Shown: piece after piece, positions 9,581-63,402 of the stretch
How the letters are laid out: every line of letters begins with the position of its first letter
How positions within the stretch are numbered: position 1 is the first letter of the stretch
NCBI GenBank assembly: GCA_039545335.1
Contig: BCIN01000005.1
Span: 896,641 to 960,640 of the forward strand
Direction of reading: 5' to 3'
DNA: 64,000 bases
From: Kondoa subrosea
Taxonomy: Eukaryota
Program-made: the position numbers and the translations under genes
Notes under the pieces: model-generated
What the model was told of the DNA's origin: nothing
Databases searched by the model: none
Seen by the model: only the letters and a program-made list of their open reading frames with translations

Positions 9581-11627
9581 TCAGGTCATCGAATAGCCCG
9601 GACCTCCTCCTCCTTCAGGTACTCTCCATTCGATATCGCCTTTAGGTGCTTTAATACTGCAAGTCTATTTGCGAAAGTGCAATCAGTGCCTCATCTTTCC
9701 TCTTCAGTGTCAGGCTTACCTTGCAATGGATGCAATTCTGACTGTTGATCACAAACTTTCTTCCATCCGCATCCGCTACTCCTCCATCTTCTGCCACATC
9801 AATATATTCATACACTCCAGCAGGACAAGCTCGATTGAGGATTCCTCCTCCATAAGGAGCGAAACTCTCTCTGACGTGTCTTGCATGATCACCATCTTTG
9901 ACTACTAAGTGAACAGGTTGGTTTTCAGTGTGATTTGTTCCTGTTCGAGAGACGGAAGTGAGAATGTCGAAAGAGAGTTTGCCATCCGGTACTGGGTATT
10001 CAATAGGTTTGTAGCCCCTAGGCATGATCATCAGAATAATTTAAACCAATAACGATGGGTTCACTCACTCAGCAGTGGAAGTTTGCAGGTAATCTTCTCC
10101 AGGATGATGTAAAGTCCAAGGCATCTTTCCTCTAAAGATGTAGGCTTCAATACCAGAATACAAGATTCCACCAATGTTGCCCAAGAAGGTATGGAAAGAA
10201 GGTCTCATGTTTCTCACACTCCTCAATTCAGACCAAACCCAACTGTTTTCCATCGCGGTCTGATACTTTTCCATCGATAAAGGTTGAACAGGTGTCTCTT
10301 CTTCCATTGGCGTAATAGCTTCAAAAGCAGTTTTTGCAGCTACCATTCCACTTTGCATAGCTGTATGAATGCCTTTGATCTTCGGTACATTGAGAAAACC
10401 AGCTGAACAGCCAACTAGAGCACCACCTGGGAAATCAAGCTTTGGTATACTCTGGAAACCTCCTTCGTTCAACGCTCTGGCTCCATAAGCGATACATTCT
10501 CCACCTTCGAGTAGATTGGCAAAGAAGGGATGATGCTTCATTCGTTGGAATTCGCGATACGGAGAGAGGTATGGGTTCTTGTAGTCTAGTCCCACGACCA
10601 GACCAATAGAGACTAATGGATCGTTGTTCTCGTTCGTCAGGTGGTAGAGCCAAGAGCCACCATATTCTTGGAATAAGGGCCAACCTAGAGTATGTACGAC
10701 TTTGCCAGGTTGATGTTTAGCTGGATCGATCCTCCATACTTCTTTCACTCCTAATCCGTAAGTTTGAGGCTCGGAATCTTTGCGTAGATTGAATTTCGCC
10801 ATGGCTTGCTTTGATAGAGAACCAGCTGCGCCTTCTGCTAGCAATGTGACGCGAGCTTTGAAGTCCATACCAGGTTCGTAAGCTTCTTTAGGCTTGTACT
10901 GCTTATCTAGACCAATATCGTTTGTCCTGACTCCGATGACAGATTCTTCACCCTGTTCGTTCTTCCCGTATAACAGCTGAGCACCGGCGAAACCAGGATA
11001 GACCTCAACGCCAAGTTCTTCAGCTTGTTCGCCTAGCCATTTCGATAGCTGAGAAAGGGATAGGATATAGTTGCCCTTGTTGTTCATTTGAGGTGGATGA
11101 GGCATAGGATAGTCAGAAGTAGAAGTCAAGAAGCGCATCGTATCTGAGGTAGCTTCCGTAAATACTGGAGGACTCAGATCTTTCCAATTCGGCAGGAGTT
11201 CATCAAGCGAGCGAGGTTCTATAACTGCTCCGGATAGAATATGCGAGCCTACCCAGCAGTTGAGCAGCCGCTTGTATCCTCAGTCTGAAGACATACCGAT
11301 CTCTCCACCCTTTTCGAGCAATACGACCCTGATCTCCTTGCCTTGCTCTTGAGCCAATTGTTTCAATCGAATTGCAGCACTCAGTCCAGCTGGTCCTCCT
11401 CCAACAATGCACACATCCACTTCATCCTCTGCATTCTCGCCCATTGGCTGCTCTTCCAGCTGTTCACGTGCATCTACAACTTCTGCCAATCGGCGAACAA
11501 ACGATTGATGCAGTGATCGACGCGAAACCAAGGGGATATGCTGATGCACTGGGTATATTACAGTCTTCAATACATCTTTACGAACCCTCTTGACAGGCCG
11601 TAGAGCTCGCAAACCGTGGCGAATCAT
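9581..11627 (-). CDS. ETFDH: Electron transfer flavoprotein-ubiquinone oxidoreductase, mitochondrial
   Basis: [18 protein letters not shown] motif, [10 protein letters not shown], Fe-S cysteines CPAGVYE..NCIHCK and C-terminal [13 protein letters not shown]. Confidence 0.96.
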
Positions 11628-54971: not shown

Positions 54972-55614
54972 ATGGTCAGCTCAAGCAGAAGGAAGTCAAG
55001 GCAGAGCCACTTTGCTGCTCCATCATCTGAGAAGAGGGTCATCATGTCTGCACCTTTGTCGAAAGAATTGAAGGAACAGCATAGCGTACGTGCATATCCT
55101 GGCAGTGTCAGACTGTAGCTGATTCTTCAGGTTATTCGCGAACAGTGCCGCAGCATCCCTATCAGGTAGCTTTTCCAGGCCAGACCTATACAACTTAGAA
55201 TGGATTACTGAGATTTCAATGCAAATTGGCAGGAAAGATGATGAAGTCTTAGTTGTTCGAGGTCATCAAAAGGGAAAAGAAGGCCGTGTCATTTCAGTTT
55301 ACCGCAAGCGATATGTTATCCACATTGAACGTCTTCACCGTGAAAAGGTTTCTGGTCAAACTGTTCAAATTGGTATCAGTCCTTCAAACGTTGTTATCAC
55401 CAAGCTCAAGTTGGACAAGGACCGGTGAGCTGAAATGTGCACATGGGAAGGTCAAAGAGCTGAAGGATTTGTCTCATGATGTAGCAAAAACATTCTAGCT
55501 CGCAAGGGAAAGAAGTCTACCTCTACTTCAGCTGGAGATGTTGAGATGTCATCGGTGAGTGCGAGATGATGATATGTTGAAATACAACTAACCTCTCCAT
55601 CTTACTCACAGTAA
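54972..55614 (+). CDS. RPL26: 60S ribosomal protein L26 (uL24)
   Basis: [28 protein letters not shown] and [10 protein letters not shown]. Confidence 0.97.
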
Positions 55615-61130: not shown

Positions 61131-61915
61131 GGGGCTAGGCAGGGAGAGTCAGTAATAGTGAGCTGACTTAGTATCTTAAGTTTGCAACGAATGAATTGAT
61201 ATAATCGCATGCAGACATGTCAAATAGTTTGGTACTTGTCAAAACCGCGATGAACCCTCCGCTACCCTAGTCTACATCGTCTTGGTCAAATATCTCTTGA
61301 GCTTGCATCAACTAGCTCTCTACCGTGCAAGATCAGATAATTCCCTTACCGACTACTTTTTCATGCTTCTTCCGCTACATACTGTGGCTGCACCTGCAGT
61401 ACTTCTCAGATAACTTTTGATCTTGTGCTGTTCGTGCTCTCAGACTCTGTCTTTGCTCAGCCTCACGTGTATCATGACTTCTCACTCTACGCTTTATGTA
61501 TCTTCAAGCATCTTCCGGTCTGTAGTTTGCGTTTCTATTACCAGTTCGGACTCTTGAACGACTATCAACAGATGCTACAATTTCCGAGGATCATTGACAA
61601 ACAAAACTTGACTATTTGATGAAACGAGATTTTCAATTGGCTTCGTAGTCAGCTATAGCAGACACCTACGATACAAGAGTGGAACTTGCTGCCCGTCCTT
61701 CATCGCGTCCTGTTGTCGCATCCATCCCTACCCTATGTCGTGAACTGATTGTTGTCTCTACTGAATTTTTGCATATCACACCTAGTAAATATCTCATCTA
61801 GTAAATCCTACAAATTTTATTTTTAGCGTTGATAAATGTAAGACAGGTTCTCGCTTCCATCGAAATTTCATTCAATTTGGGGATGTAACTCAGTTGGTAG
61901 AGTGCCTGCTTAGCA

Positions 61916-61935
61916 TCCGGCTTAGGTCGCTTGTT
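61916..61935 (+). other. Canonical tRNA intron at position 37/38
   Basis: 20 nt starting one base 3' of the AGC anticodon; contains GCT complementary to the anticodon. Confidence 0.85.
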
Positions 61936-61955
61936 TGCATGAAGTCCACGTTTCG

Positions 61956-62007
61956 GTATGTCACAAACCTGTTGAGCATGGTCCTTTAACTCATGGATCC
62001 CTTGTAG
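61956..62007 (+). other. Spliceosomal-type (GT-AG) intron in the tRNA T-loop at position 57/58
   Basis: GTATGT donor, TTTAACTCAT branch-like region and CCCTTGTAG acceptor; 52 nt, like the mRNA introns here. Confidence 0.8.
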
Positions 62008-62033
62008 AATACGTGCTTCTCCACCATTATACC

Positions 62034-62038
62034 TTTTT
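62034..62038 (+). terminator. Pol III terminator (T5) of the tRNA gene
   Basis: First run of 4 or more T after the tRNA start, 10 nt past the discriminator base. Confidence 0.7.
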
Positions 62039-63402
62039 GCTCAGTTTACGCTTTCCTTTTGCTGCCATGCCTCACCAGGTTTCGAGAGGCCAGACGTTCT
62101 AAAGATTGGAAAAAAAGTGTAGATTTTTTTTCCCGCACATTCTTTGCCCAGTATGGCCTTTCCAACCACAGAATACGACAGAGCATCATCTAATACACCT
62201 CTCAACCAATTTCCAGCCTTATCGCATCACTAGATCTCTTACAGATCACTTTCATGCAAATCTCTGTGCCGAGAAATTTGACAGATTACGTAATCCGGGA
62301 AGTCAAGCCGCTCATTGTTCGAAACCATCTACATCTGCTTCAGCAAATGAGCTTGCATGAAATAAGCTGTCGGTTCAAGAAGCGATGTGGTGTATGACAA
62401 TTGCAATAACGAAATACAAGTAATCCCTGGCTCGCTTTCTTTCATTCATCGGCAGCAGCTCTTCGAGCCTAGACAAAGGCTCGGCAAACGCCGCACACCC
62501 GAGGAGAGAGAGAAACTGAACTCACCGACGCTTTCTTGATCAATTGAATTGCTCTCTGATTTTCCAACTTTTGGTCCATTCGCACAATTCTTCGAGCTAC
62601 ACCACGCCCCGTACAAAGGCGATCAAGCTGTGCATCTGCCATGTTCTTAGCACCTCGGATTGCCGAACCATCTGGAGCTCGCAAATGCTGGTCAAAATTT
62701 GCTCTGATCAGTTTAGTCAGCAACGCAAGGGAGATAGATCTGCAAGCCTTACAGAATTCTGTCCTTCCCTTTCAGCTTTGAAACATCGAAGACTGCCTCT
62801 GCGTCCCTTCCCACCAAGCGTCTTCTCAGCCTCTTACTCTCAGTATTGTGGCTTCTTGATGCTACTAGTTTGAAAATAGCTTTACAAGCGTATGAGAGGT
62901 GACCTTGAGATCCGACGAAATTGATGGCGAGAAGGAGGCAGTTGATTGTAAACCAGTGTCTCTAGTTTTGTAGGAAATCAAAAAGATGGAACATTTCAAG
63001 CAATCGCACGCCTGCCGGGATAAAGAACAAAGTCAAGCGACTCGAAGTGCAGGAAAGTAGATTGATGACACCGTGAAGAAGGGGCATGGATTAAGTTGGT
63101 CTAGCGATTCGCTAAAGTGCGATGCATGAAACCGCAGCGCAGTTAAGTAAAAGCAAGAGAAGCCTATGATAAATTGCATTCGCGAACCTTGGACATTTCT
63201 GGCTATTTAGAGACCGGAAGAGCTTCGAAATAGACAGAGCTTTGGCAATCTCTCGAAAAAGCGAAAGACAGATAGGAAACAGGGAAGATACGTCAAACAG
63301 CGCCCAGCCGTTGGAGTAATAAGCTGGCAGAAGATTCACCAGTACTGAATCCTTCATAGACATGCCGACGCGACATCAACCACCTTGCACTAGCCTCCCG
63401 CA

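Follow-up and report, generated by a model that had tools for sequence, protein, structure and literature searches.

A putative spliceosomal-type intron in the T loop of one of two detected tRNA-Ala(AGC) gene copies of a basidiomycete

Nuclear tRNA genes are thought to hold only introns that are removed by the tRNA splicing endonuclease (SEN), and the three kinds of nuclear introns are treated as separate worlds. Introns of the mRNA type are listed, in a review on U6, for the genes of the small nuclear RNAs (snRNAs) U6, U2, U5 and U1 and of ribosomal RNA (rRNA) only, with reverse splicing as a possible origin; the hosts named there are the U6 gene of Schizosaccharomyces pombe, the U6, U2, U1 and U5 genes of Rhodotorula hasegawae and ascomycete ribosomal DNA (PMC5855946). 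Spliceosome-mediated transposition of introns, including reverse splicing into the DNA of R-loops, is treated by Ares et al. (PMC11146597). Here we describe a nuclear tRNA-Ala(AGC) gene copy of the basidiomycete Kondoa subrosea that may add a tRNA to these hosts. It lies in a 64 kb stretch of contig BCIN01000005.1 (positions 896,641 to 960,640 of the forward strand), called the window below, both strands of which were used in the scan of removed segments. It is well supported, from the letters of the DNA, that an apparent spliceosomal-type intron sits in this gene copy (Table 1).

Table 1. Features of the interrupted tRNA-Ala(AGC) gene and of the loci compared with it (window coordinates, except for the two rows of the metagenome locus L004)
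Feature	Position	Strand	Basis or description
Interrupted tRNA-Ala(AGC) gene including both intervening segments	61879-62023	+	Sequence, ARAGORN, Rfam RF00005
Exon 1, tRNA nt 1-37	61879-61915	+	Acceptor 5' strand GGGGATG, D-arm, anticodon stem CCTGC, loop TTAGCA (anticodon AGC)
20-nt intron, site 37/38, SEN type	61916-61935	+	tRNA-Ala call requires its removal; relaxed bulge-helix-bulge
Exon 2, nt 38-57	61936-61955	+	T38, GCATG, variable loop AAGTC, T-stem CACGT, T-loop start TTCG
52-nt insert of spliceosomal type between T-loop nt 57 and 58	61956-62007	+	GTATGT donor, branch-like TTAAC/CTCAT, TGTAG acceptor
Exon 3, nt 58-73	62008-62023	+	T-loop end AAT, T-stem ACGTG, acceptor CTTCTCC, discriminator A
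Encoded CCA right behind the discriminator	62024-62026	+	Within the 76-base call of ARAGORN
T5 run, candidate terminator of RNA polymerase III	62034-62038	+	First run of at least four Ts past the gene start
5' flank	61831-61878	+	Last 8 nt (61871-61878) identical to those of the paralog; rest homologous, diverged
Interrupted tRNA-Ala(UGC) gene	L004:471-625	-	82-nt GTAAGT...pyrimidine-rich...CCCCCAG insert between nt 27 and 28
Second tRNA-Ala(UGC) copy, 5'-truncated, without insert	L004:405-463	-	Rfam 20.9 bits, model positions 8-63
ETF-ubiquinone oxidoreductase (ETF-QO) gene	9584-11522	-	Three introns of 48, 51 and 55 nt

The tRNA that is left when both segments are taken out is well formed. 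Standard pairs, with G3:U70 counted in, occupy 19 of its 21 stem positions, the exceptions being U6.U67 and C28.U42, and the D-arm of exon 1 pairs A10:T25. The conserved U8, A14, G18G19, U33, T54, T55, C56 and A58 are all present, as are both the alanine identity pair G3:U70 and an AGC anticodon in a 7-nt loop. No run of four Ts occurs within 61879-62033, and the T5 run that could end transcription by RNA polymerase III (Pol III) begins 11 nt past the gene. A preliminary description of this DNA had set out the same layout, the signals of the 52-nt insert, the restored TTCGAAT loop, the G3:U70 pair, the U6.U67 mismatch and the lack of a T4 run before the terminator, all of which we could reproduce from the sequence; the C28.U42 mismatch was absent from it. 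The ordinary 37/38 intron that it reported was also found, being needed for a tRNA-Ala call and having a fitting geometry.

Two resemblances within the gene are recorded here. The start of the 37/38 intron (61917-61925) is nearly a copy of the anticodon stem-loop CCTGCTTAG (61905-61913), with 8 of 9 letters the same, as if it had been duplicated locally. The 5' acceptor strand has a complement in the 3' part of the insert (61995-62003, the CATGGATCCCTT region), which could compete with the true stem; it provides an alternative 'acceptor stem' in the minimum free energy (MFE) fold as well as in a 15.2-bit Rfam alignment.

Standard tRNA finders would miss this gene, as the preliminary description had expected. 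ARAGORN reports no tRNA on the raw window with its intron option on or off, no tRNA after removal of the 37/38 intron alone, a malformed call after removal of the 52 nt alone, and a clean tRNA-Ala(agc) when both segments are removed. The Rfam model RF00005 does align on the untouched window, its positions 1-71 covering exactly 61879-62023 with 25 inserted letters in the anticodon loop and 55 in the T loop, and the raw DNA reaches 27.3 bits, just short of the gathering threshold of 29, with E = 0.18 over the whole window. The runs of this model are inconsistent: a 501-nt run gives a 15.2-bit alternative that ends inside the insert, and a 14-kb run at E<=1 lists no tRNA. The in-silico removal of GT-AG segments that had been proposed was carried out within the window. 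A total of 3,592 segments of the form GTNNG[TC]...[TCA]AG with lengths of 35-120 nt were removed one by one, and a single tRNA call came out, which is this locus.

The insert resembles an mRNA intron by the standard of its own genome, a claim of the preliminary description that holds up. It has a GTATGT donor, the branch-like sequences TTAAC and CTCAT (61986-61994), in which the A lies 18 and 14 nt, respectively, before the 3' end, and a TAG acceptor, so that a GTRNGY donor, a YTNAY branch 8-25 nt before the end and a YAG end are all there. It lies in sense orientation, and its edges coincide with the break in the tRNA to the base. The ETF-QO gene provides three introns placed by protein homology, i.e. 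GTATGT..CTCAAC..GGGTAG (48 nt), GTGAGT..CTGAT..CCTAG (51 nt) and GTAAGC..CTGAT..AATAG (55 nt), and the forms of the splice signals in the insert recur in all three. Among 105 candidate introns that join open reading frames, 44 are 48-57 nt long, and the insert falls at this mode; the candidate list is rough, with false positives that include the present locus (it joins two chance-open frames of at least 35 codons), and served for the length mode only. The composite signal, defined as GT[AG]NG[TC], YTNAY 8-25 nt from the end and a terminal YAG, is found in 8 of the 127,896 52-mers of the window (6e-5), with the real introns and the insert counted in. An unsupervised expectation-maximization model of the introns settled on coding-sequence artefacts and was discarded.

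An alternative hypothesis could be that the insert merely looks like an intron, being unrelated filler DNA, e.g. from double-strand-break repair, in a tRNA gene or pseudogene, with GTATGT...TAG arising by accident. The scan that flagged the locus covered very many windows, so rare coincidences are to be expected, and the window holds no second copy of the insert; we found no match longer than 12 nt to 61800-62100 elsewhere in the 64 kb. However, such an accident is unlikely because the composite signal is so rare and because the edges match the tRNA break exactly. The length at the intron mode, the sense orientation and an independent second case among only two retrieved eukaryote-type nuclear tRNA-Ala loci, described below, also speak against it. 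We consider this hypothesis improbable. A group I or group II intron was rejected, the insert being too short and having no Rfam match; no other Rfam family matches the insert either. A hidden pair of protein-coding exons flanking it was rejected as well, with just short chance open reading frames there.

The insert does not have the bulge-helix-bulge (BHB) motif that SEN-type removal at a non-canonical site would require. We used our own geometry test, which looks for two 3-nt bulges carrying the splice sites with a 4-bp helix between them, and took the 37/38 intron as the positive control. This intron reaches 3/4 for the central, 3/3 for the outer and 2/3 for the inner pairs, i.e. a relaxed BHB, and pairs with the anticodon loop. 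For the insert the corresponding counts are 2/4 (wobble pairs only), 1/3 and 0/3, and shifts of +-1 never bring the central count above 2/4. The MFE of the precursor is not better than that of its shuffles (z = 0.82).

These results bear on the possibility of a non-canonical tRNA intron, which the tRNA splicing endonuclease, or another nuclease and ligase pair outside the spliceosome, would cut out. Non-canonical BHB introns are not known in fungi. Outside the fungi, a review describes introns at many tRNA sites, the T-arm included, in Archaea, Cyanidioschyzon and nucleomorphs (PMC3978253), and the position of the insert would by itself suit such a class. Against it stand a test that recognises the 37/38 intron and finds no BHB here, a precursor no more stable than its shuffles, and the GTATGT, branch and TAG signals, which removal of the SEN type would leave unexplained. 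We regard it as the least probable of all the explanations considered here.

The gene has a paralog, as our analysis of unitigs indicates. The unitigs come from two DNA sequencing runs (X1 and X2) of the same sample, which is possibly the source of the window, and so they are not an independent proof of the sequence. They contain no variants at the locus, but the unitig graph forks there. The segment 61871-61915, i.e. 8 nt of flank and exon 1, forms a unitig of its own at about twice the depth of its neighbours (302.7 versus ~145 in X1 and 95.3 versus ~50 in X2), and it joins a second upstream flank and a second continuation past nucleotide 37. The doubled depth and the single fork on each side imply exactly one other copy with this exon 1. 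The paralog is identical in exon 1 (37/37) and continues with a different 23-nt intron at 37/38, followed by the same T38 and GCATG; the next base, position 44, is C in the paralog versus A in the interrupted copy. Since the paralog has the same C28.U42 mismatch, it belongs to the species and does not indicate decay.

Outside the exons the two copies have diverged. Their 37/38 introns could not be aligned by eye. In the 30 letters of the paralog's 5' flank that were read, an alignment by eye matches 14 of 17 positions upstream of the common 8-mer with a 1-nt indel, and a 14-nt indel follows further up; both flanks hold a TATA-like stretch GATAA(A/C)TGT. By a rough estimate, an exon 1 identical at 37 of 37 positions would be expected in ~0.1% of cases if it diverged like the flank. 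This identity next to a diverged flank argues that selection or gene conversion acted on the interrupted copy until recently, or continues to do so. At the same time, the existence of the paralog means that the interrupted copy may be dispensable.

The promoter of the interrupted copy is probably impaired. The insert splits the internal B box, and a search of 61700-62300 for a B box with <=3 mismatches to the consensus found none but a spurious one at 61908 in the anticodon loop. The restored B box deviates at positions 53 and 61. A G53:C61 pair closes the T-stem in nearly all tRNAs, and here the restored closing pair is T53:A61 instead. The A box at 61886 has two mismatches to the consensus. 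A Pol III type-2 gene has intact A and B boxes and an oligo-T terminator; of these, the terminator is present here.

Our tentative preference, given without strong confidence, is that a true spliceosomal-type intron was transposed into a tRNA gene and left a young, probably crippled copy. The host would be one member of a pair of nuclear tRNA-Ala(AGC) genes in a basidiomycete with ~19 Mb of assembled DNA. In addition to its 37/38 intron, this gene would have gained a sense-oriented U2-type GT-AG intron between nucleotides 57 and 58 of the T loop. The likeliest entry of this intron may be spliceosome-mediated transposition, by reverse splicing either into the pre-tRNA, with later recombination of the cDNA, or into the displaced DNA strand of an R-loop. 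The same entry has been proposed for the mRNA-type introns in the U6, U1, U2 and U5 snRNA genes and in rRNA genes. The insertion, having split the B box, would leave the copy poorly or not at all transcribed by Pol III, while the paralog takes over its role, and any RNA made with the insert could presumably be freed of it by the spliceosome only. What leads us to favour a crippled copy is the interrupted B box, the pair T53:A61 and the paralog. The exons without decay, the C28.U42 mismatch common to both copies and the intact splice signals suggest a young age.

Several observations weigh against a crippled copy. Selection should act against the fixation of a null allele when just two copies of a major tRNA gene are detected. 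The sequence of exon 1 is kept at 37 of 37 positions though the flank and the 37/38 intron have diverged, and exons 2 and 3 pair perfectly, which is the look of a selected gene; a dead copy therefore needs a recent insertion. Both A10:T25 and T53:A61 are Watson-Crick pairs changed on both sides from the usual G:C, which is not a pattern of random decay. In addition, Pol III transcription from upstream elements or read-through by RNA polymerase II (Pol II) could bypass the split B box.

The gene may instead be alive. The spliceosome would remove the 52 nt, SEN and tRNA ligase would remove the 37/38 intron, and a functional tRNA-Ala(IGC) would result. Pol III might transcribe such a gene by means of upstream elements and the A box, stopping at the T5 run, or a Pol II transcript might include it, and removal of the 52 nt would let the T-arm and the acceptor stem form before the 37/38 intron is spliced. 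This possibility draws on the clean cloverleaf, with its G3:U70 pair and its conserved nucleotides, that an exact removal gives, on the absence of an internal T4 run ahead of the nearby T5, on exons that are undecayed although the paralog's flank and intron have diverged, and on intact splice signals in a segment at the intron mode of the genome. There is also a precedent in the U6 RNA of S. pombe, a Pol III transcript with spliceosomal splicing (PMC5855946), and a second and cleaner case is L004, where both promoter boxes are intact and a T8 terminator follows. With the undecayed exons and the intact signals and terminator, the cost of losing one of two detected copies keeps a live gene close behind a crippled one. 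On the other side, the B box is split with no substitute nearby, the 53:61 pair is T:A, the A box deviates at two positions from the consensus, because of the 14-nt indel (by eye) the TATA-like stretch lies farther from the gene than it does in the paralog, and the 3' part of the insert pairs with the 5' acceptor strand in competition with the true stem. We see a live gene as a real possibility, though not the likelier one. The interpretation in the preliminary description, a pre-tRNA that may need both the spliceosome and SEN, is partly supported: the insert is intron-like and in sense orientation, its removal restores the cloverleaf, and it has no BHB. The split B box, T53:A61 and the exon-1 paralog had not been considered in that description.

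The encoded CCA offers another view of the origin of the insert. A CCA encoded right behind the discriminator is unusual in a eukaryotic nuclear tRNA gene and is expected by chance in 1 of 64 cases. In yeast, the processing of tRNA ends and the addition of CCA precede tRNA splicing. One could thus imagine that an end-matured, CCA-tailed pre-tRNA still carrying its 37/38 intron was reverse-spliced, reverse-transcribed and recombined into the gene, which would have brought in both the insert and the CCA; the retained 37/38 intron would fit the yeast order of events. However, chance yields a CCA at the rate just given, and the 5' flank is homologous to that of the paralog, so the whole locus is no retrocopy. 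Neither an A-tail nor direct repeats around the insert or the gene were found. This account concerns the origin only and fits a live as well as a crippled copy; we hold it to be very improbable, more so than a chance resemblance. A processed tRNA retro-pseudogene was rejected for similar observations: the CCA is present, but the 37/38 intron is kept, the flank is homologous to that of the paralog and no direct repeat flanks the gene.

A second interrupted tRNA-Ala gene was found among metagenome contigs, which we searched with the 25-nt start of the tRNA. Six loci were retrieved. L002 and L003 are tRNA-Ala(TGC) genes of bacterial or organellar type, L001 and L006 are tRNA clusters of the same type whose first tRNA is not Ala, and L005 is an ordinary eukaryote-type tRNA-Ala(UGC). 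L004 is the interrupted one. It has the same acceptor stem as the fungal gene, U6.U67 included, and becomes a perfect cloverleaf without its insert; its T-arm and its A and B boxes are intact and a T8 terminator follows. The interrupted gene scores 35.3 bits with Rfam. The L004 insert has caveats of its own, since it contains a T4 run and gives an ambiguous result in the BHB test (2/4 central, 3/3 outer, 2/3 inner). MFE folds of both precursors, i.e. of the fungal gene and of L004, have no greater stability than shuffles, and the structure is uninformative. The L004 gene stands 200 nt downstream of an aminopeptidase gene on the same strand, whose best named relatives are diatoms at 55-60% identity; its host is therefore an unrelated protist and no relative of the fungus. 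Directly behind the interrupted gene lies the truncated copy (Table 1), in which two bases are added where the splice junction would be and the 3' acceptor strand is altered. It is possibly a tandem partial duplication or a cDNA copy.

We may speculate further that these observations belong together. In that case the fungal gene would be alive through the spliceosome together with SEN and tRNA ligase, spliceosomal introns would transpose into Pol III tRNA genes of distant eukaryotes, as L004 would show, and the CCA with the kept 37/38 intron would be the footprint of reverse splicing into an end-matured pre-tRNA with later cDNA recombination. We think this combination, read from the sequences, possible but doubtful.

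The host lineage was placed in Basidiomycota with the ETF-QO protein of the window. Its best named matches are 63-66% identical and include Microbotryomycetes as well as Tremellomycetes, and other assemblies encode proteins with 90% and 75% identity. In a quick maximum-likelihood tree the window protein and these 90% and 75% relatives form a long branch of their own in an unresolved basal polytomy of basidiomycetes. A tie of this lineage to the 'red yeasts' with snRNA introns is possible. Elsewhere in the window, a 'tRNA-Ser(gct)' called at c[54902,55028] by ARAGORN under relaxed settings is taken as a false positive, because it overlaps a weak match to a C/D-box small nucleolar RNA at 55001-55051 on the minus strand, resembling snoZ103 at 23.9 bits versus a gathering score of 44, in which the letters of the C and D' boxes are clear.

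Spliceosomal introns in non-coding RNA genes are the classic evidence for insertion by reverse splicing, and a tRNA host would extend this evidence to an abundant Pol III transcript outside the spliceosome. Full-text literature searches, in which subscription journals were thinly covered and an older report is possible, brought up no published tRNA gene with a spliceosomal intron, which agrees with the preliminary description. The locus would give the models of intron gain by R-loops and reverse splicing a datable example with the paralog as its control. If the copy is live, the supply of a tRNA would depend on the spliceosome. Since standard finders miss such genes, the tRNA complements of intron-rich fungi and protists may be under-counted.

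The insert can be compared with four known systems. Like the introns of snRNA and rRNA genes, it is a short GT...AG segment with branch and acceptor, in sense orientation and inside a conserved structured part of a non-coding RNA, and U6 is likewise transcribed by Pol III. Unlike the snRNA introns, its host is a tRNA, which lies outside the spliceosome and is not expected near the active site. The intron of the S. pombe U6 gene carries a B box, whereas the present insert disrupts the internal promoter. The splicing of U6 has been documented, and that of the insert is a prediction.

With canonical 37/38 introns of the SEN type the comparison is direct, since this gene has one of its own with a relaxed BHB and anticodon-loop pairing. 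The insert differs in its site at 57/58, in its lack of a BHB and in having spliceosomal signals that SEN introns do not need. The BHB introns and permuted tRNAs of Archaea, Cyanidioschyzon merolae and nucleomorphs also include genes with more than one intron, sites in the T-arm and genes missed by standard finders (PMC3978253). Unlike the insert, those introns need a BHB and are without GT, branch and AG signals.

The last comparison is with intron transposition and introner-like elements. Unlike introners, the insert shows no evident sequence family in the 64-kb window, and its target is a Pol III gene instead of an mRNA gene. What it has in common with them is that a new intron appears with the typical local length and complete signals. 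Genes for tRNAs form R-loops. The model of reverse splicing into R-loops, as given by Ares et al., predicts insertion in sense orientation, and this is the orientation of both the present insert and that of L004 (PMC11146597).

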